The position numbers were made by a program, and so were the translations under genes. 9,583 nucleotides of DNA from the IMG/VR virus record IMGVR_UViG_2617271049_000002; one strand, 5' to 3'. The notes beneath the pieces were generated by a model. It was given only the letters and a program-made list of their open reading frames with translations. It searched no databases and was not told the origin of the DNA. Every line of letters begins with the position of its first letter. The stretch's first letter is position 1. This stretch comes from a virus (Duplodnaviria > Heunggongvirae > Uroviricota > Caudoviricetes). Of the stretch, positions 506 through 9,583 are shown piece by piece.

Positions 506-2803
506 TTAACCGTCATGCATCATGCTGGCACGGGCGCGCGCACGTTTATCCCGCTCGTATTTTTCGAGCGCATCCTGTAACTGGCGGTCAAGCTGTGTCC
601 CCGGCGCAGTACCACCGGTCAGGCTGATGTGATATTCGTTTTTACTCTGGTCCACATAAGAGCGGCCAGCCGGTGCCGTAACCGGCTGATAAGCCTGATA
701 GCCTGCATAAGAGCTGGTCGCCGGAATATAACCACCGGTGCCATACGTGGCGGCATTAGTCCTTGCGGCGGTCTGGTCAAGTGTGTCTGACTCTTTGTTG
801 ATGACACCGAGTTTTTCCAGTACCCAGTCAATACCACTGCGCAGTTTGTTGAACGCATTAAGCGGCAGCATCAGCGCGTCAGNNNNNNNNNNGACCGGGG
901 CAATCAGGTTTTTAAACCACTGCCACGCGGCCTGTAACTTTTCACCCAGCCAGTCAAACACCGGTTTAAGTGGCGTGAACAGTTCCCCCACCGGCGCAAA
1001 TGCCGCTTTCAGCCCTTCCACCACACCGCCAAAGAATGCGCTGACAGGCTCCCAGTATTTACGGATAAGCAACGCCCCGGCGACAATGGCAGCCACCACG
1101 GCCACAACCGGCCAGCTAATCGCACCGATGGCCGTCATAACGGCACTACCAACCGTCGTGAAGATTGCCCCCATTGCGCCTGCTGCCGCGATAATGGCAT
1201 TGATGCCGGTGATAACCGGCCAGGCTACAAGACCAATGGCACCGATGATGCCAGTAAGCGCCAGCGCGCCACCGACAATGAGGCCGATGGTTGACGCCAG
1301 TGATTTGTTTTTCTGGATCCAGCCGTCGAGTTTTAACACATACTTTGTGGCCGTCTGCGTGAGCTTACGCAGTGCGCCTTCCTGCTGGTCAAACAGGTCA
1401 GTCCCCACCGCCTCATAAGCGGACTGAAACTCCTTAAAGTCACCGCCAAGGTTGTCCTGCATGATATTTACCAGTTCTGCGGTCTTTCCGTCTGAGGCTT
1501 TAAACGCAGCGGTCAGTTTGTCCAGCTTTCCGGTTGACGCGGCAGTCATCAGCACAGCGGCGGCTGAGCTGGCCTCCTCCCCGAAAATGGTTTTCATGTA
1601 TTCGGCCTGCTGGGCAGTACCGAGCCGGTTTTTCTCAAAACTGGCCTGCATTTCTTTCAGAATGGTGAACAACGGACGCATATTTCCCTTTTTGTCCGAG
1701 GTTTTAACGCCAAGCTCTTTGAGTGCATCCCATGCTTTTCCCGTCGGTGCCTGCAGGCGGCTTAACACGGCACGGCTTCCCGTCCCCGCCATTGAACCGG
1801 TAATTTTTGCATCATGCAGCGCCCCGACCATTGCGGCGGTTTCTTCAATGCTGACACCAGCATTTTTTGCCACAGGTGCGGCATAGGTCAGCGCATCGCT
1901 CATGCCATCAAAATCGGCGGCGGTTTTGTTCATCGTCATGGAGAGAACATCCCCGATATGAGCGACCTTATCGTTTGAAAGCTGAAAGGCGGATTTCATC
2001 CCCATCAGCAGGGCGGCGTTTTCTTCCATCGTGCGACGGTTCGCCAGCGCCATATTCAGCGTGACCGGCGTTGCCGCCTGAATGGCATCAACATCCCCAC
2101 CGGCTTTCGCGATAATAATCTGCGCACCGGCTGCATCATCCGCCGAGGCGGCGGTATTGTCGCCGAGCTGGCGCGCCTGCTTGCGTAGTGCAGCCANNNN
2201 NNNNNNCGCCGCAATCCCCACACCGGCAGCGCCTACTGAGGCCATATTTCCGGCCAGTTCCTTTCCGGCCTGATAACGCTGTTTGACTGCGTTAAGTTTT
2301 GCCTGTTGCACACTGACACGCGCCAGCGCGTCGCGCTGACGGTTAAGCTGTGCGGTGGTTTCACTGATACGGTTTTTCAGTCCCTGCTCATCATGTGCAA
2401 GATTGCGGGTATTAATTCCCACAGCGGCCAGTTCCCGCTGCTGGCGTTTAACGGAATCCGTCAGGCGGTTATATTTCGCCTGTAAGTCCTCCGCCGCTCG
2501 CTTTGCGGATTCCAGCACTTTCGCCTGAGCACGGGTCGGACGTTCGGTGTTTTTAAACTGTGTGGCAAGGGCTTCGGCTTCCTGCCGTGCCTTTTCAAGT
2601 GCATGACCAGTCACGGCAAGCTGTGCACTGGTCTTGCGGAATCCCTCAATACGGGATGCGTGACCGTTCAGCTCGCGCAGTGATTTTTGTGTTTCCCGGA
2701 TATCCCCCGACAGCGACCTGCTCGCTGTGCGGATGGATTTAAACGGGCGGGATGCCTGGTCAACAGCCCTGAGCAATACCTGTAATTTTACATTGTTACT
2801 CAT
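506..2803 (-). CDS. T: Tail tape measure protein gpT, 765 aa as given (contains two masked 10-N runs)
   Basis: Long ORF directly after E/E'. It has a coiled-coil-rich N-terminal part (…LQAKYNRLTDSVKRQQRELAAVG…) and a long Gly/Ala/Ile-rich hydrophobic segment (…LIVGGALALTGIIGAIGLVAWPVITGINAIIAAAGAMGAIF…) typical of tape measure proteins. Its ATG (2803..2801) overlaps the E' stop in the motif AATGAGTAA. The frame is maintained across both N runs. Confidence 0.9.
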   Translation of the reverse strand: MSNNVKLQVLLRAVDQASRPFKSIRTASRSLSGDIRETQKSLRELNGHASRIEGFRKTSAQLAVTGHALEKARQEAEALATQFKNTERPTRAQAKVLESAKRAAEDLQAKYNRLTDSVKRQQRELAAVGINTRNLAHDEQGLKNRISETTAQLNRQRDALARVSVQQAKLNAVKQRYQAGKELAGNMASVGAAGVGIAAXXXXAALRKQARQLGDNTAASADDAAGAQIIIAKAGGDVDAIQAATPVTLNMALANRRTMEENAALLMGMKSAFQLSNDKVAHIGDVLSMTMNKTAADFDGMSDALTYAAPVAKNAGVSIEETAAMVGALHDAKITGSMAGTGSRAVLSRLQAPTGKAWDALKELGVKTSDKKGNMRPLFTILKEMQASFEKNRLGTAQQAEYMKTIFGEEASSAAAVLMTAASTGKLDKLTAAFKASDGKTAELVNIMQDNLGGDFKEFQSAYEAVGTDLFDQQEGALRKLTQTATKYVLKLDGWIQKNKSLASTIGLIVGGALALTGIIGAIGLVAWPVITGINAIIAAAGAMGAIFTTVGSAVMTAIGAISWPVVAVVAAIVAGALLIRKYWEPVSAFFGGVVEGLKAAFAPVGELFTPLKPVFDWLGEKLQAAWQWFKNLIAPVXXXXDALMLPLNAFNKLRSGIDWVLEKLGVINKESDTLDQTAARTNAATYGTGGYIPATSSYAGYQAYQPVTAPAGRSYVDQSKNEYHISLTGGTAPGTQLDRQLQDALEKYERDKRARARASMMHDG
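883..892. other. Run of 10 N (masked or unresolved bases) inside gene T
   Basis: Literal nnnnnnnnnn in the sequence. The T reading frame continues unbroken on both sides (XXXX in the translation). Confidence 1.
2197..2206. other. Run of 10 N (masked or unresolved bases) inside gene T
   Basis: Literal nnnnnnnnnn in the sequence. The T reading frame continues unbroken on both sides. Confidence 1.
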
Positions 2804-3223
2804 TCGTGTTTCCGCTTCGCCGGAGCGCCTTTTCGCGCCATGTGATGAGTTCGGTCAGGCTCATGGGATACAGTTCTGATGGCGGCCAGTGAAATATCAC
2901 TGCCACATCCGCCATCAGGTCATCGACCGAGAGATTTTTTGGAAACGTCACTGCACCGAGTTCGGCGACAAAAAACCGACCACCTTACCGGCCAGCGCCA
3001 CAAGGTCAGGCAGTTCCAGCGCGGCGACTTCCTGCTCGGTCAGCATCGGTGCCGTCATGCGCGGCAGCACCTTAATCAGTGCATCGACTTCGGAGTTCGC
3101 GACCGCTGCCAGACTGACACCGCGCAGCGTCCCGGCATTGGGTTTCATCAGCGTGACCTGTTCGATAATCTGCTCACCACGTTTGACCGGATTGTCCAGG
3201 GTAATGACGTTTTCTTTGTTCAT
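2796..3223 (-). CDS. E+E': Tail assembly chaperone gpE+E', 142 aa, made by a programmed -1 ribosomal frameshift at T_TTT_TTG (2975..2969)
   Basis: Hand translation: the zero frame reads …GTC GGT TTT TTG TCG…TGA. Slipping -1 on T TTT TTG continues as GTC GCC GAA CTC… = VAELGAVTFPKNLSVDDLMADVAVIFHWPPSELYPMSLTELITWREKALRRSGNTNE*, which is 57 codons with a TAA at 2798..2796. Total is 85+57 = 142 aa, the size I recall for P2 E+E'. The stop overlaps the T start codon. Confidence 0.8.
2948..3223 (-). CDS. E: Tail assembly chaperone gpE, 91 aa (zero-frame product)
   Basis: 91-aa ORF between the tube gene and the tape measure gene, with the same size and position as P2 E. It ends …GKVVGFLSPNSVQ* and contains the slippery run GGT TTT TTG near its 3' end. 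Confidence 0.88.
   Translation of the reverse strand: MNKENVITLDNPVKRGEQIIEQVTLMKPNAGTLRGVSLAAVANSEVDALIKVLPRMTAPMLTEQEVAALELPDLVALAGKVVGFLSPNSVQ
2969..2975 (-). promoter_or_regulatory. Slippery heptamer T_TTT_TTG for the E to E+E' -1 frameshift
   Basis: Minus strand reads gg-T TTT TTG-tcg in the E frame (plus strand caaaaaa at 2969..2975). It has the X_XXY_YYZ form and the -1 frame stays open for 57 further codons. Confidence 0.8.
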
Positions 3224-3279: not shown

Positions 3280-3798
3280 TCACAGGCCGATATTGCGGCG
3301 GTGTTGCTCCAGCCGGTCGACGCCGTTCACCTTCTCAATCATGTTGATGGTGTCAATTTCGACCAGCTCCTTACCGTCCATCGTCAGCCGGAAATAAGTG
3401 CAGACCACGGAGATTTTCGACTCGGTATCTTCTCCCTGTTTCCCCTCGCCGGTGTCGATTTCTTTCTGACGTCCACGCATGACCACCTCGACGGCCACCG
3501 TTTCGCCGGTATCGTCGCGCTGGTAAGAGCCTGCAAAACGAATCGGTACGGCATCCACACCGGTTGCGGCGTAAAGTTCCCAGATAACCGAATCCGGGAA
3601 GCCCCCGAGCGACCACTCCATTGACAGCGCATCGTCATCAAGGCCGAGGTCTACCGGTGCGCTGCCGTTCATCCCCGCACCGCGATAGTTTTCGAGCTTA
3701 CGGGTCAGTTTTGGCAGCGTGACGGACTTTGCAACGCCCTGATAGCTGTAGCCGTTCAGAAAGACGTTCATTAACTTGAGTTTGCGCGGCATTGCCAT
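3280..3798 (-). CDS. FII: Major tail tube protein gpFII, 172 aa
   Basis: 172-aa ORF immediately after the sheath gene (12-nt gap), with the size and position of P2 FII. Sequence MAMPRKLKLMNVFLNGYSYQGVAKSVTLPKLTRKLENYRGAGMNG… is typical of contractile-tail tube proteins. Confidence 0.9.
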   Translation of the reverse strand: MAMPRKLKLMNVFLNGYSYQGVAKSVTLPKLTRKLENYRGAGMNGSAPVDLGLDDDALSMEWSLGGFPDSVIWELYAATGVDAVPIRFAGSYQRDDTGETVAVEVVMRGRQKEIDTGEGKQGEDTESKISVVCTYFRLTMDGKELVEIDTINMIEKVNGVDRLEQHRRNIGL

Positions 3799-3810: not shown

Positions 3811-5001
3811 TTAATTGCTGTTAACCGAGGTGACCAGATTTGCCAGATATTTATCAGTAATACGCTGGCGCAGGGTCAGGTTTTCGAGAGGAGGCACCGG
3901 GGTATAGTCATAGTCGATATACAGTTTTCCGGCCTTGAGGGTTTCCGCATCGTTGGATTCTTCGCTGAACCAGCAGGTCGCATCCACGATATAGCCGTTT
4001 GTTTTCAGCTCACGGAATTTGGCATTGATGCCGTCAACGATGTCGCGAATCAGCGTTGCGGTGATGGGCTTATCCACCGCCCACATGTGCGCCTCAGCCA
4101 TCGTGTCGGCCAGCACCTGCGCGGTGCGGGTGTAGTTTTCAAAGAGGAACAGTGGGTCATCAGAGCAGGTACGGTTACCCCAGAAGCGGAAACCGTCACG
4201 GCGAATCAGCGTTGTGACACCTGACTCGTTCAACAGGTCAGCATCGGTGCCGGACTCCTGCAAATCCCAGAATACAGAGGCGCTGATGCCGGTAACACCG
4301 TTTACCCCGACATTGGACAGCGTTTTATGCCAGCCCTGCTCCTGGTCGATTTTAGCGCGCAGACCCAGCGCACGGGCGGTGGCATACGCGGTGGCGGTGG
4401 TGCTGCTGACCGTATCCCATGCGAGGAAATCCGGCCAGATGACCATCAGCTCACGCTGGCTGAAATTCTGGCGGTAGGCTTTCACCTCGGAAATAGTCTT
4501 ACAGCCCCATGCGCTGATATATCCGAAAGCGCGCAGCTTCTGACAGACGGATGCCAGTGCAACAGCCACCTCTTTGGTATCCAGTCCCGGCACACCGAGA
4601 ATACGCGGTTTAACACCGGTTACCGACTCCGCCGCCAGCAGGGCTTTCAGTCCGGTGTACTGACCGTTTTCGTCGGTGGTGCCGATGATATTGGAAACGG
4701 TCTGCGCGAGTTTCGTTTCTTCGTCATCGCCGGTGCCGTCTTCCACGCGCACGACAACGGTGACCGGTTTTGACTGGTCGGCGATGGCCTGCAACGATGC
4801 CGCCAGCGTGCCTTTTTTACCGGCCTTTGCAATTGCGCTCTGCACATTGGTAATCAGCACAGGTTTATTGAGGGGGAAGGTTTCCGCATCCGCATCGCTG
4901 GCCGTGCAGACCATGCCGACAATGGCCGTGGATACGGTGGAAATGACGCGGGTGCCGTCGTTAATCTCCAGCACCTGCACGCCGTGATGATAGTCGCTCA
5001 T
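3811..5001 (-). CDS. FI: Contractile tail sheath protein gpFI, 396 aa
   Basis: 396-aa ORF starting MSDYHHGVQVLEINDGTRVISTVSTAIVGMVCTASDADAETFPLNKPVLITN…, which I recognise as near-identical to P2 FI. A GGAG Shine-Dalgarno lies 8 nt upstream of the ATG (minus strand caccGGAGttaaacggATG). Confidence 0.93.
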   Translation of the reverse strand: MSDYHHGVQVLEINDGTRVISTVSTAIVGMVCTASDADAETFPLNKPVLITNVQSAIAKAGKKGTLAASLQAIADQSKPVTVVVRVEDGTGDDEETKLAQTVSNIIGTTDENGQYTGLKALLAAESVTGVKPRILGVPGLDTKEVAVALASVCQKLRAFGYISAWGCKTISEVKAYRQNFSQRELMVIWPDFLAWDTVSSTTATAYATARALGLRAKIDQEQGWHKTLSNVGVNGVTGISASVFWDLQESGTDADLLNESGVTTLIRRDGFRFWGNRTCSDDPLFLFENYTRTAQVLADTMAEAHMWAVDKPITATLIRDIVDGINAKFRELKTNGYIVDATCWFSEESNDAETLKAGKLYIDYDYTPVPPLENLTLRQRITDKYLANLVTSVNSN

Positions 5002-5095: not shown

Positions 5096-5123
5096 ATAAA
5101 GAAAATGCGGGCAATTCGCCCGC
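5095..5123 (-). terminator. Rho-independent terminator closing the island (or H-G read-through) transcript
   Basis: An all-G:C 6-bp stem gcgggc/gcccgc (5107..5112 pairs with 5118..5123) has a 5-nt loop. On the minus strand it is followed directly by ATTTTCTTTATCTGTT. It lies between the stop of the second island gene and the FI promoter region. Confidence 0.55.
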
Positions 5124-5184: not shown

Positions 5185-5219
5185 AATCTGACAGTCTGCT
5201 TTGAGCGAGGAGCGGAAGT
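5185..5219. repeat. Left arm of a 35-bp imperfect inverted repeat flanking the AT-rich island
   Basis: aatctgacagtc-tgctttgagcg-aggagcggaagt compared with the reverse complement of 7458..7492, aatctgacagtc-cgctctgtgcc-aggagcggaagt. The two 12-nt blocks are identical and the middle block matches 7/11, giving 31/35 overall. Confidence 0.75.
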
Positions 5220-5276
5220 TCGCTTTGCTCCCGTGTTAATAGTGGGTATTAATCAATCGGGAGCATAACCATAGAA

Positions 5277-6434
5277 TTAGCTGTTTGATTCAGCATCAGC
5301 AACTTTTCTATATTTAGTAAGCAATTCTACTTTACGTAATTCAATCTCACGCATAATGTTTGATTGAATATCATGTATTTTAGAGGGCGACGCACCTTTA
5401 ACCTTTATATTTATAAAGGTAATGCACAATTCAGGATTAACAGGGGTTTTTCTTCCATATTCACTAAACTCGTATGCAACCTTACATTCACCTGAATAGG
5501 ATTCATAGCTAATTGTGTAACTTGCGACAACCTTAGTAACACGTACATACGGGTGTATGTGTTTCCATTTGATAGATATTATATTCTCTAGATTTCCTTT
5601 GACTCTATACTGGTCAATATCTTTTTCGAGAAAATTAGTCACAGCATCTGATTGTTTTTCGTAACCAGTAGAATGATCCGGATTAAAATGAACATCATCT
5701 ATTTTTTGATGGTAGAATAAGTATCCAATATGAAGGGATGCTAATTCATTAAGGAATTTTACTCTGTTTTCATTTTCAAAATCATCCATCAGAACTCTAC
5801 CTCGATGAGGCGAATGTTCAATTATATTATTTCTTTCCAAATGCTCCTCTATCAAGGTTATGACATTTTCAGCTATTTCTTTAGTTTCCGGAGATGTGTG
5901 ATTTAGTTTTACATTCATTAAAAGCTGGGAGTTACCAGTGATGCCATTAACGTCTTTCTTGATTTCCACAGATCCTTTAAAGAACTTCTCAGTTATATAC
6001 CAATCATCTAGAATATCTGTCTTGCAAATTTCGAACTCCATTATTACGGAATTATTACTTCTACCATCTAGAGATGTAAAATCGCTAAAATCTGATATCT
6101 CATAATTAATGTAACCATTTTTTGTGATTTTACTAACATCTACAAACCCACTAACTTCACCAAGCAAATCAACATCTTGCTTAAGATCAAAATTCCTGAA
6201 ATTTACTTTATCTAATTTTTCCTTTGTTTTAATACTGCTTAGTAAATCATAAGATTCATCAGGGCTTAGTAAAGAGGTGATCAAGTTTGGAACTGTGCCT
6301 GATTTTTCAGACACTCCGCAAAAAAGCCCTCTTTCTTTAAGTAGATTATTGATCATTGTAGAGCTACAGTTCTGCTGGCTCACAAGATTTTTCAGTTCAT
6401 CTCCGGAGGGGATGAAATCAATATCATTTTTCAT
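5277..6434 (-). CDS. Island gene B: hypothetical protein, 385 aa, no recognisable domain (candidate partner in a defence system)
   Basis: Long uninterrupted ORF in AT-rich DNA. The preferred start is the ATG at 6434..6432 (MKNDIDFIPSGDELKNLV…), because it is preceded by AGGAG at 6447..6443 with an 8-nt spacer. That start overlaps the stop of gene A by 11 nt. The track's longer start at 6470 has no RBS and would overlap gene A by 47 nt. I found no Walker A, HxH, HEPN (Rx4-6H), TIR or helicase motif. Confidence 0.8.
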   Translation of the reverse strand: MKNDIDFIPSGDELKNLVSQQNCSSTMINNLLKERGLFCGVSEKSGTVPNLITSLLSPDESYDLLSSIKTKEKLDKVNFRNFDLKQDVDLLGEVSGFVDVSKITKNGYINYEISDFSDFTSLDGRSNNSVIMEFEICKTDILDDWYITEKFFKGSVEIKKDVNGITGNSQLLMNVKLNHTSPETKEIAENVITLIEEHLERNNIIEHSPHRGRVLMDDFENENRVKFLNELASLHIGYLFYHQKIDDVHFNPDHSTGYEKQSDAVTNFLEKDIDQYRVKGNLENIISIKWKHIHPYVRVTKVVASYTISYESYSGECKVAYEFSEYGRKTPVNPELCITFINIKVKGASPSKIHDIQSNIMREIELRKVELLTKYRKVADAESNS

Positions 6435-7350
6435 CAGAAATGCTCCTGAAGGTGCTATTATAAGAATCAACGATTAATGTAATATCTCCAACGACATCCT
6501 CAGAGCCATCTTCAAAATTTTGCGCCATTTTGACTTCATCAACTGAAGGGGAGTCTGTGAGTTTATTATATTTATTGAAATAAATCTCATAATGATTTGC
6601 GAAATCGGAACAAAGCTTTCTAGCTAATTTATACACCAACCCTAGTGATTCTTTACTGTAATTAAAATCGCAAAGTAATATAAATTTTCGCCCATTATCA
6701 TCAGGCACAGAAATGGGAATTATTGGAGAGGTAATGTATTCAACAGGCATTATTTTAGAATGTCTTGTTGAAGATGAAACATTTAAGGTAGTGTTAAGAC
6801 AGAAAAAAGATATTTCACCATGCTTTTTCTTGATAAAGCTTATCGAGTTGTATAAAAATTTTGCTCTTGCGTTATCAACGAGATGTATGGCGTTGAACTT
6901 GAGGGTAGAATCGATTCTATGATTGATGATTTCACCTTTAATATTATCATTTGAATCGCTTTCATCATTATTTAAATAAAACAAAACCCCAATATCTTCT
7001 TTTCTTGAACTACCTGGAAATTGTCTTGTTATGGTTCTTTTAAACTGGGATTTTGAATAACATTCAATGGTGTGTGCCAAGTCTTTGAAATGTGAGCGAA
7101 AAGTAGTTTTGACTTTATCGTAAGGTACTGATGAATACTTTGCAGAAACAACAACGCTTACTAATGATTGTTTTTGAAGCATAGAGTTGTAGACATACAA
7201 AGCATCTATTCCATGTGTCTTTTTAGCATGTTCTCCCACGCAGCAATCTAATTGCTTGTTACTACATAGGTTTTTCCATCCAAAGAGTTTCAGAAAGTCA
7301 TTGACTATCTCTTCGCCCACCTCGCCGACATATTTTGAGAACTCGCCCAT
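6424..7350 (-). CDS. Island gene A: hypothetical protein, 308 aa, with an N-terminal PD-(D/E)xK-like (Mrr/DUF4365-like) putative nuclease core
   Basis: Long ORF in AT-rich DNA. The N-terminus reads GEVGEEIVNDFLKLFGW (acidic helix ending in G-W), then HGID49ALYVY (beta-strand Asp), then SLVSVVVS69AK71Y (hydrophobic strand followed by S-x-K). This is the order and spacing of restriction-endonuclease-fold cores (E…D…(E/Q/S)xK). The C-terminal ~220 aa are unassigned. Confidence 0.8.
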   Translation of the reverse strand: MGEFSKYVGEVGEEIVNDFLKLFGWKNLCSNKQLDCCVGEHAKKTHGIDALYVYNSMLQKQSLVSVVVSAKYSSVPYDKVKTTFRSHFKDLAHTIECYSKSQFKRTITRQFPGSSRKEDIGVLFYLNNDESDSNDNIKGEIINHRIDSTLKFNAIHLVDNARAKFLYNSISFIKKKHGEISFFCLNTTLNVSSSTRHSKIMPVEYITSPIIPISVPDDNGRKFILLCDFNYSKESLGLVYKLARKLCSDFANHYEIYFNKYNKLTDSPSVDEVKMAQNFEDGSEDVVGDITLIVDSYNSTFRSISDEK

Positions 7351-7385
7351 TACCTAAACCGCCGTCTATTAAATTATAATTCTTT

Positions 7386-7414
7386 ATAGTATTAATCTTA
7401 TTCACATTTATCAA
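7386..7414 (-). promoter_or_regulatory. Putative sigma70 promoter of the island operon (TTGATA-N17-TACTAT)
   Basis: Minus strand reads TTGATA (7414..7409), a 17-nt spacer, then TACTAT (7391..7386), about 36 nt upstream of the gene A ATG. A perfect TATAAT also occurs at 7378..7373 but has no good -35. AT-rich DNA produces such matches by chance. Confidence 0.45.
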
Positions 7415-7457
7415 CATTAGGAGTAAGCAAGACGAATTAGTAGTGAGTCATCAATCG

Positions 7458-7492
7458 ACTTCCGCTCCTGGCACAGAGCGGACTGTCAGATT
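7458..7492. repeat. Right arm of the 35-bp imperfect inverted repeat flanking the AT-rich island
   Basis: acttccgctcct-ggcacagagcg-gactgtcagatt is the reverse complement (31/35) of 5185..5219. It overlaps a local hairpin with a perfect 9-bp stem, ggcacagag (7470..7478) pairing with ctctgtgcc (7501..7509). Confidence 0.75.
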
Positions 7493-7532: not shown

Positions 7533-8060
7533 TTATTGCGGCATTTCCGGCCATTCAGGATTTGCAGGATCCACACGACTGACCAGAACGCTGTAGCGTT
7601 CCCATGATTCCAGTCGGCTACGCTCCTCATCTGTTGCCATGTTCAGTCTGACCGCGCGCTCCAGCGGCAAAATCACGGATTCAGCATCTGCAAGAAGTCT
7701 GGCTTTCTGAATTTCTGCCTGCTGCTGTAATTCCTCTGCCGTATAAATGCGTTTAATCACTTTGCCGTCCTTAAACATCCAGTTCCCTGAAATGTCCGCC
7801 CGTCGGTTAGCAGTAATATCCGCCACTTCAACAACACTTAATCCATCCGGTCTGATAGCTGTCACATCCTTTTCCACATAGTGGATGATATTATCTTTGT
7901 CGTACGCTATTTTTATCGTGTCATCAGCAAAATACTTTTGTTCTTCGTACCAGTTCTTACCATCTTCTGAAAAAAACCAGACAACATCAAAGTCCTTTGT
8001 CAATTGATATTGTTCAACCGTTTTTGGATTACCCGCCGTAATATTTTTTAAATGCTGCAT
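7533..8060 (-). CDS. G: Tail fibre assembly protein / chaperone gpG (Tfa family), 175 aa
   Basis: 175-aa ORF 3 nt downstream of the tail fibre gene, with the same size and position as P2 G. The C-terminal …[27 protein letters not shown] is typical of Tfa-family chaperones. Confidence 0.88.
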
Positions 8061-8063
8061 AAA

Positions 8064-9583
8064 TTATACCTGCGCCACGTTATACCATGTCCCGTTAATG
8101 TATTTCTGCACCGGTCTGTAATATACGCCACCAATGTTATCGGCAGAGTTTGAGCCGGTATCCTGAACAATAATGCCGGTATATACGCAACCTGACGGAG
8201 CCTGATGCGTCCATGTAGTACCATTATTTGCTGGTTTATATGTAGATGCACCGCCCAGCCGCATGTCTCTCACATAACGTGAATCTGATTCAGCTTTGGT
8301 GTATGCACCAACATCTCCCGCTGAGGGTTTATGAGCAGTTGTATATAGTTGCGCCCATCCAGACCAGTTAGCATCTGTGGTATCTCGTCGGGAGCGAATA
8401 TATGCCGGAGCATGAGCACCGCTGGTTCCACTCCAGCCAATAAGTAACTCACCCTCTCCTACTGCGGTTACGCCAGTGAGATGAAGCACATTACCATAGG
8501 CTGTTGGGTAGCCATTGTTGTATGCCTCATACATCTGAATACCTGGTGTCCCCTTTACGCTCCCACCTAATGCAGTAACACGGTTTCTGGATACCAGTGT
8601 ATTAATATTTATATCAGCAGAGCCATCAAATCTGACACCATTAATATTTCTTGCGTTCGCTAACTTCGTTGCTGTTGCAGCATTTCCCGAAAGGCTGGAA
8701 ATAAATGGATGTGAGCAGTAATAACCGCGCCCATTTTTAAAATCCAGAATAGCCTGTGCGTTCGTGCTTTCTGTAGCAGGATTAGTTGCCCCCCACTTAT
8801 ATGTCGTTTGACCGACGACATAATCCTCTGTCGGAACAATAACCGTTAGCCCTTCCTCTGCAAGAATTTGCACAGGGAAAGCTCTGGCTTCAACATAAAA
8901 AACACTACATACATCATCATCTTTCAGGCTTGTAACAATGGAATGGATTGAACGCTCATTAGTCTGATACGTCCAGAAATAACCTGCCGCATATGAACCA
9001 CGATCAGTCCAGCCTCCGGGCATAACCATGCCATTAAACTCGCAGTTATTCATTACATAATCGCTGTTATAACAACCAGTGGAAATAACGACGCGGGATG
9101 CCATTTCTCCTGAAAGGCTGGCAGCACGGCGAAAGATAACGGGATACCACTTCCCGGCAACGACATTTGCAGGGGCTGCAAACGAATACTTTCGCATTCC
9201 CTTTTTCTTATCCACTTCACCTTTGCTGTAAACATTAATGTTACTCAGGAAGCGTCCTTTATCAGGAATATCCGCACCGTTCTGATCTTTCTGAAGACGT
9301 TTTTCAGCATTGTCATAGGCAGACTTCACCGCTTTTGGTGTTGCGGCCTGCGTTTCAGAATCACTGTTGGTGGCGCTACTGAGCTGGACAAGGCCTTTCC
9401 GCGCGGTGGTGGCATCCTGTGCAGTGTATTTCCCGTTAGCAAGGTCATACGCTGTCTTAACCGCCTTTGGCGTTGCCGCAAGCGTTTCAGAATCGCTGTT
9501 GGTGACGCTACTGAGCTGGACAAGACCTTTTCGCGCTGTGGTGGCATCCTGTGCAGTGTATTTCCCGTTAGCAAGGTCATACG
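8064..9583 (-). CDS. H: Tail fibre protein gpH, C-terminal ~506 codons (5' end lies beyond the window)
   Basis: The track starts this ORF at a GTG (9329), but the same frame stays open up to the window edge. My translation of 9581..9330 is YDLANGKYTAQDATTARKGLVQLSSVTNSDSETLAATPKAVKTA repeated twice and running into …VKSAYDNAEKRLQKD. This is the conserved tail-fibre repeat motif shared by P2 H and related fibres. The gene is followed by the chaperone gene G. Confidence 0.9.
   Translation of the reverse strand, partial: YDLANGKYTAQDATTARKGLVQLSSVTNSDSETLAATPKAVKTAYDLANGKYTAQDATTARKGLVQLSSATNSDSETQAATPKAVKSAYDNAEKRLQKDQNGADIPDKGRFLSNINVYSKGEVDKKKGMRKYSFAAPANVVAGKWYPVIFRRAASLSGEMASRVVISTGCYNSDYVMNNCEFNGMVMPGGWTDRGSYAAGYFWTYQTNERSIHSIVTSLKDDDVCSVFYVEARAFPVQILAEEGLTVIVPTEDYVVGQTTYKWGATNPATESTNAQAILDFKNGRGYYCSHPFISSLSGNAATATKLANARNINGVRFDGSADININTLVSRNRVTALGGSVKGTPGIQMYEAYNNGYPTAYGNVLHLTGVTAVGEGELLIGWSGTSGAHAPAYIRSRRDTTDANWSGWAQLYTTAHKPSAGDVGAYTKAESDSRYVRDMRLGGASTYKPANNGTTWTHQAPSGCVYTGIIVQDTGSNSADNIGGVYYRPVQKYINGTWYNVAQV
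9318..9583 (-). repeat. Two tandem 132-nt (44-aa) near-identical repeats inside H encoding the conserved KGLVQLSS-TNSDSET-AATPKAVK-AYD fibre motif
   Basis: Copy 1 is 9581..9450 and copy 2 is 9449..9318, both beginning TATGACCTTGCTAACGGGAAATACACTGCACAGGATGCC. I saw only a handful of substitutions. A degenerate third unit starts at 9317 (YDNAEKRL…). Confidence 0.9.

Follow-up and report, generated by a model that had tools for sequence, protein, structure and literature searches.

What are two AT-rich genes doing among the tail genes of a P2-like prophage, and do they act as a pair? The question is raised by a stretch of viral DNA of 9,583 nucleotides (nt; IMG/VR virus record IMGVR_UViG_2617271049_000002; Duplodnaviria, Heunggongvirae, Uroviricota, Caudoviricetes), which we call the window at its full length and which, by Pfam matches and PGAP context, is the tail-gene region of a P2-like prophage with its genes read on the minus strand. 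Inside it lies an island with a G+C content of 33.5% between two inverted repeats, compared with 55.5% and 46.3% in the flanks, and the island holds two minus-strand genes, A and B. A preliminary description of this DNA had picked out the same low-G+C island, a real feature on re-examination. It took B for an orphan protein with a wrongly annotated start, for the likeliest place for a new fold or function, and for the stoichiometric partner of A in a system of sensor/effector or toxin/antitoxin-like type.

Identity of the island genes

We consider it very probable that gene A is gapS4a and gene B gapS4b, which together make up the two-gene GAPS4 anti-phage system, and that this AT-rich pair was acquired horizontally and rides as cargo in a P2-like prophage, at the Z-region, with B starting at the ATG at 6434. 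Gene pair, family, start codon and function are already known, through RefSeq, NCBIfam, Pfam and a mechanistic preprint, and as a discovery the identification carries little weight, the system being known down to identical proteins. The two genes are placed as follows.

6424..7350, minus strand: gapS4a (protein A), PD-(D/E)xK nuclease effector, 308 amino acids.
5277..6434, minus strand: gapS4b (protein B), 385 amino acids, non-catalytic GAPS4 partner (NCBIfam NF047934, PGAP coding sequence WP_028132564.1, N termini of homologues).

B matches the NCBIfam profile NF047934 (GapS4b) with 324.1 bits (cut-off 300), residues 8-371 aligning with positions 1-354 of 355, and A matches NF047933 (GapS4a) with 291.3 bits (cut-off 270). 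The island DNA is 100% identical in three complete Escherichia coli genomes, in which PGAP names the genes gapS4a (WP_028132563.1) and gapS4b (WP_028132564.1), and tblastn finds the window proteins 100% identical to these two coding sequences. Proteins with the same accessions were cloned from E. coli RiKo 2299/09 and assayed as GAPS4^RiKo (Mahata et al., bioRxiv 10.1101/2025.09.07.674715). The window agrees with GAPS4^RiKo in gene order, in the HGxD-SxK motif including D49 and in its native upstream region as well, with no difference at the protein level. The word 'prophage' does not appear in the GAPS4^RiKo preprint, whereas the window shows the pair where it naturally resides, in a P2-like prophage at the Z-region.

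The first report of GAPS4 described it among the cargo that Gamma-Mobile-Trio (GMT) islands carry in Vibrio (bioRxiv 10.1101/2023.03.28.534373), and 1,639 non-redundant GAPS4 systems have been reported across 59 bacterial orders (bioRxiv 10.1101/2025.09.07.674715). Our own searches point to a similarly established family: a word-indexed search with B returned 53 clusters, the majority named 'GapS4b family' and tagged Pfam PF26110, and an exhaustive GapS4b profile search of 1.84 billion representatives (50% identity) found 416 proteins at E ≤ 1e-3, including 199 at E ≤ 1e-30. Remote homology search, one of the checks that the preliminary description had proposed for B, found clear homology to the characterized GapS4b family.

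Several null results could be cited for B as a true orphan whose fold is new and whose function is of no known kind. Local scans of Pfam-A, PHROGs and PADLOC-DB v2 returned no match for B, local Pfam-A returned none for A, B or any of 25 GapS4b family members, and a profile search of PDB sequences (below) found no sequence match to solved structures; A had in PADLOC-DB v2 (2023), from which GAPS4 is absent, only a weak 'Hp1' match (E 2.9e-5). The precomputed annotation of every homologue, by contrast, carries PF26110 (GAPS4b N-terminal) or PF26115 (GAPS4 PD-(D/E)XK), and because our local library missed families attached to every homologue, the null Pfam and PADLOC results are a matter of library date and not a property of the protein. 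As to family and function the orphan reading is refuted by the NF047934 score, by PF26110 on the homologues, by the 416 family representatives and by the earlier assay of the identical protein pair, and we give it practically no credence.

The gapS4b start codon and its partnership with gapS4a

Where B begins was the next point at issue, since a mechanical list of open reading frames (ORFs) starts it at a TTG at 6470, the first start codon past the upstream stop, which gives 397 amino acids. The junction of the two genes contains the following elements.

6443..6447, minus strand: Shine-Dalgarno (SD) sequence AGGAG of gapS4b, within the F-R-S codons near the gapS4a C terminus.
6424..6434, minus strand: 11 nt shared by the two genes, from the gapS4b start codon to the gapS4a stop codon.
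7386..7414, minus strand: sigma-70-like promoter candidate TTGATA-17-TACTAT, upstream of gapS4a and within the cassette.

On the minus strand the junction reads ...TTC AGG AGC ATT TCT GAT GAA AAA TGA. AGGAG (6447-6443) is followed by an 8-nt spacer, CATTTCTG, and then by the ATG at 6434-6432; A ends in ...SISDEK* with its TGA at 6426-6424, and the stretch from the ATG of B to the TGA of A is an 11-nt overlap in different reading frames. From ATG 6434 to the TAA at 5279-5277, B has 385 amino acids, with a predicted N-terminal peptide MKNDIDFIPSGD... (MKNDIDF...). On re-reading, the preliminary description had these coordinates exactly right.

Five independent lines of evidence drawn from sequence and annotation favour ATG 6434 as the start of B. 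First, the SD spacing is appropriate. The window has 4 sites of the pattern AGGAG-N5-10-ATG, where 1.4 ± 1.2 would be expected and where a count of 4 is attained in 12 of 200 shuffles; 3 of these 4 are real gene starts, namely those of the ORF at 491, of FII at 3798 and of B at 6434. Pairing energies with the anti-SD are nearly equal for the two candidates, −6.6 kcal/mol for ATG 6434 and −6.4 kcal/mol for TTG 6470, and the GGAG upstream of the TTG lies ~14 nt away, outside functional spacing. Second, in a 25-member alignment reaching down to 22% identity, all 24 aligned homologues begin 4-9 residues ahead of a conserved FIPSGD block, and the 12-residue extension from 6470 has no counterpart in any homologue of that alignment. 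Third, in two distant loci (L005 and L008) the B frame opens just 1-2 codons upstream of the homologous ATG, so that a longer N terminus is impossible there. Fourth, the NCBIfam GapS4b match begins at residue 8 of the 385-amino-acid form. Fifth, the RefSeq/PGAP coding sequence on 100% identical DNA equals window positions 5277-6434, that is, it starts at 6434.

A start at TTG 6470 would have in its favour a frame that is open from there and the GGAG upstream; each of the five lines speaks against it, and we see hardly any chance for it. The preliminary description was thus correct in preferring ATG 6434. Its call for re-annotation was superfluous: RefSeq/PGAP already uses that codon (WP_028132564.1), and 6470 occurs only in the mechanical ORF list.

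Because the gapS4b ribosome-binding site sits within the last codons of gapS4a, the two genes are probably read from one mRNA as tightly joined frames, with translation of the second coupled to that of the first. Set against coupling is the fact that an 11-nt overlap together with a strong SD of gapS4b's own would also be compatible with independent initiation. As to the mRNA itself, the cassette copy in Silvania hatchlandensis (described below) keeps the promoter candidate upstream of gapS4a as TTGATA-17-TACCAT; since promoter-like sites in our promoter scan were not enriched over shuffles (9 versus 10.4 expected), we list the site as a conserved candidate only.

The arrangement recurs elsewhere. 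A scan of genome contigs yielded 7 other loci (L002-L008), a small sample for junction statistics, and in all 7 A precedes B with a tight junction: an 11-nt overlap in L002-L004, a 4-nt (ATGA) overlap in L005 and a 3-4-nt gap in L006-L008. The SD, which is AGGAG, AGGAA or AGAGGG across homologous loci, always lies within the conserved ...YNxxFR C-terminal codons of A. Furthermore, at least 10 representatives of ~700 amino acids match GapS4b in their C-terminal half only, and the proteins of this kind that were checked (4 of 4) join a complete GapS4a, as the N-terminal half, to a complete GapS4b, as the C-terminal half. Such natural a–b fusions are classic gene-fusion evidence that A and B act together, and with the conserved junctions they support A and B as stoichiometric partners, a proposal of the preliminary description that has held up.

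Function of the pair and its proposed sensing of DNA breaks

If A and B are GAPS4, published work describes what they do. GAPS4^RiKo, cloned with its native promoter, gives up to 10^6-fold protection, and for the Vibrio homologue no protection is obtained from either gene alone. Vibrio GapS4a and GapS4b co-purify, with a mass of ~164 kDa by SEC-MALS (size-exclusion chromatography with multi-angle light scattering), consistent with an a2b2 complex, and an AlphaFold 3 (AF3) model places a two-subunit GapS4b ring at the centre with one GapS4a docked on each subunit, active sites outward. GapS4a is a PD-(D/E)xK DNase with a divergent HGxD-SxK motif. Upon infection GAPS4 degrades host and lambda DNA, with cell death at high multiplicity of infection, and GAPS4^RiKo sensitises cells to nalidixic acid and to the PoNe DNase toxin. 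Plasmid injection and lysogeny fail to trigger the system whereas nalidixic acid and delivered DNase toxin do, for which reason DNA breaks are the proposed signal. Phage homing endonucleases blunt GAPS4 independently of their catalytic activity, and an autoimmunity cost on overexpression is cited (all bioRxiv 10.1101/2025.09.07.674715).

The nuclease motif is present near the N terminus of A, as HGID at residues 46-49 and SAK at residues 69-71.

7204..7215, minus strand: gapS4a codons H46-G47-I48-D49, making up HGxD, one half of the active-site motif.
7138..7146, minus strand: S69-A70-K71 codons of gapS4a, the SxK half of the motif.

H46, G47, D49, S69 and K71 are invariant across 28 GapS4a homologues, SduA of the Shedu system is a top structural match of A, and D49A abolishes GAPS4^RiKo defence (bioRxiv 10.1101/2025.09.07.674715). 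The nuclease is therefore A, in keeping with the earlier remark that B has no catalytic motif. A point of numbering may be recorded here: the E. coli mutant is called D49A in the text of bioRxiv 10.1101/2025.09.07.674715 and 'D59A' in some of its figure legends; the motif Asp of the window protein is residue 49, and D59 follows the numbering of the Vibrio homologue.

Under the mechanism that these data suggest, GapS4a and GapS4b would assemble into an a2b2 complex that stays silent until DNA breaks arise through phage infection, nalidixic acid or a DNase toxin; once activated, the complex would degrade phage and host DNA indiscriminately and the infected cell would die (abortive infection). 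To this we add that GapS4b may be the DNA-sensing scaffold, a putative dimeric ring of the RdgC/Iml3-like fold class, which would engage broken or linear DNA and so license the two outward-facing GapS4a nuclease sites.

Of the two kinds of system named in the preliminary description, the sensor/effector pair is broadly right, with the nuclease in A. A toxin–antitoxin-like module, in which one protein is toxic alone and the other neutralises it, coupling setting their ratio, would agree with the tight overlap, the two genes, the nuclease component and the autoimmunity cost. It does not agree with the finding that neither gene alone protects or with the stable, co-purified a2b2 complex of the Vibrio homologue; the trigger is DNA breaks and not loss of a labile antitoxin, and single-chain a–b fusions are hard to square with an antitoxin that is degraded separately. 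We regard such a module as very improbable. GAPS4 also differs from related defence systems, since in Shedu a single protein, SduA, forms a tetramer that itself senses ends whereas GAPS4 has two genes, and in Hachiman (HamA/HamB) the partner HamB is a helicase whereas GapS4b lacks helicase and ATPase motifs and has a different fold.

What, then, is B? An AlphaFold 2 model (predicted local distance difference test (pLDDT) 76, predicted template-modelling score (pTM) 0.72) comprises an ill-defined helical N terminus of ~70 residues and a confident core with two modules, each a β-sheet plus a long helix. We tentatively suggest, as a lead and not a finding, that GapS4b is an unrecognised dimeric DNA-encircling protein of the RdgC/RexA/Iml3 class and the putative break sensor of GAPS4. 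RdgC dimerises into a ring with a pore of ~30 Å through which DNA is bound (PMC1885664), and such a ring fits the GapS4b ring predicted in the authors' AF3 model; RdgC itself goes unmentioned in bioRxiv 10.1101/2025.09.07.674715.

RdgC, lambda RexA and Iml3-Chl4 (CENP-L/N) are dimeric DNA binders that have no sequence-profile similarity to GapS4b and no Foldseek support. With the B model as query, Foldseek had no PDB match below E 1e-3 and returned only generic sheet-plus-helix (START/Bet v1-like) matches of low TM score; among PDB sequences the GapS4b family profile had 0 matches (E up to 10); an hhalign comparison of GapS4b with RdgC yielded a probability of 0.06%, which is no signal; and at E up to 10 the RdgC Pfam family matched none of the 25 GapS4b family members. 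Because hhalign gave no signal, we propose at most a resemblance of fold, and no homology. GapS4b further differs from the RdgC fold class in its additional helical N-terminal domain of ~70 residues, modelled with low confidence, and in being paired with the nuclease GapS4a, RdgC and RexA having no such partner. Given this lead, the 'genuinely new fold' once expected of B is unlikely.

A closed GapS4b ring, if there is one, might load, in the manner of Csn2 and Ku, only where DNA has a free end, and in this way switch on the two outward GapS4a nucleases. Csn2 and Ku are toroids that thread onto double-strand DNA ends (Csn2: PMC3695520) and provide the analogy for a ring that reads free ends; their folds are unrelated to that of GapS4b, for which end-threading is hypothetical.

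Three considerations weigh against this account of the pair. The mechanism is taken from a preprint, for proteins with the same accessions. The SEC-MALS stoichiometry is that of the Vibrio homologue, and a2b2 for the E. coli (RiKo) pair is an AF3 prediction. Finally, because RdgC also loads on circular DNA (PMC2965237), a ring would not be sufficient for DNA-end specificity and alone leaves it unexplained.

B might instead be a scaffold or inhibitor only, keeping GapS4a inactive or dimerised while breaks are recognised by GapS4a or by a host factor. In support, DNA ends are sensed by PD-(D/E)xK defence nucleases on their own, an example being SduA, mentioned above as a top structural match of A, and our searches gave neither a sequence-level link from B to any DNA-binding family nor a significant Foldseek match. 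In our estimation a role of this kind is rather unlikely. The RdgC-like ring, for its part, offers a concrete, testable idea for the step that the preprint leaves open, the physical recognition of DNA breaks; if true, it would give GAPS4 a structural connection with both lambda Rex exclusion and RdgC, the host's regulator of recombination.

A cassette in the prophage tail-gene hotspot

How the pair came to lie among tail genes can be followed from its borders. The minus-strand gene order of the window is H, G, low-G+C island, FI, FII, E/E' and tape-measure, with the following coordinates.

To 8064, minus strand: tail fibre gene H.
7533-8060, minus strand: tail-fibre assembly gene G (Pfam Caudo_TAP).
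7458..7492: inverted-repeat arm on the tail-fibre-assembly (G) side; Silvania similarity ends at 7488.
5185..5219: inverted-repeat arm on the sheath (FI) side; Silvania similarity ends at 5194.
3811-5001, minus strand: sheath gene FI (Pfam Phage_sheath).
3280-3798, minus strand: tube gene FII (Pfam Phage_tube).
506-2803, minus strand: tape-measure gene.

The cassette occupies the Z-region between G and FI and is bracketed by the inverted-repeat arms, 35 nt each and 89% complementary to one another. The same arrangement is seen in P2-EC58 and Wphi records, and in the 'proviral Z-region' records of P2-EC58 a left and a right inverted repeat equivalent to these are annotated. Accessory and defence genes that vary are documented at this region in P2-like phages (PMC13586616). 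The P2 Z/fun locus and the P2-like Z-region agree with the window cassette in position between G and FI and in type of inverted repeat; the cargo differs, being orf44 in Wphi, ORF1 in P2-EC58, S1 peptidase, HNH or DUF6615 genes in other E. coli, and GAPS4 here.

In S. hatchlandensis (L002, 2947-5242) a GAPS4 cassette is 94% identical over window positions 5194-7488, and the nucleotide similarity starts and stops inside the inverted-repeat arms. The Silvania cassette is chromosomal, following hycH-hycI, and not in a phage. The inverted repeats appear to travel with an exchangeable cassette, or to define it, and the finding of a 94%-identical chromosomal copy in another genus illustrates the exchange of defence cassettes between mobile and chromosomal settings.

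The cassette is rare at this site. Only 3 of 5,426 complete E. coli genomes carry it, while ~1,000 of the 5,426 match the flanks only and have other cargo there; it is absent from all 50,697 records of a phage collection, in which the matches are to the P2 flanks only. The window provides a clean natural example of GAPS4 carried in the tail-gene (Z-region) hotspot of a P2-like prophage. Compared with E. coli EH01-18-02, one genome with the identical island, the island is 100% identical, whereas identity is 99.7% for the sheath protein and 99.4% for the tail-fibre assembly protein; the prophage or strain behind the window is therefore a different one, though a close relative.

Two hairpins lie near the sheath-side border. 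A G+C-rich, terminator-like hairpin with a T-rich tail (5107-5123, minus strand; GCGGGCGAATTGCCCGC ATTTTCTTTA) belongs to P2 backbone sequence that separates the cassette from the sheath gene; we considered this hairpin (5123-5107) as the gapS4b terminator and set it aside on account of its backbone position outside the cassette. Directly after the gapS4b stop, a 7-bp stem GCTCCCG...CGGGAGC (5227-5264, minus strand) encloses a 24-nt loop, has no T-run and is kept in the Silvania copy.

Some features of the remaining tail genes may be mentioned. Between the tube and tape-measure genes (2796-3223), two small overlapping minus-strand ORFs, 2948-3223 and 2796-2951, correspond to the E / E+E' tail-chaperone pair of P2, expressed by −1 frameshifting according to the annotation of phage Wphi. 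The tape-measure gene carries two masked runs of 10 N each, at 883-892 and 2197-2206, which appear as XXXX in the translation. Last, a minus-strand ORF at 9326-9580 contains an internal tandem repeat in two copies (MTLLTGNTLHRMPP...SSSVA.PT.ILKR). Since PGAP, in a genome with the identical island, has a single long tail-fibre coding sequence spanning the matching stretch, this ORF probably represents a repeated segment of gene H read in an alternative frame.

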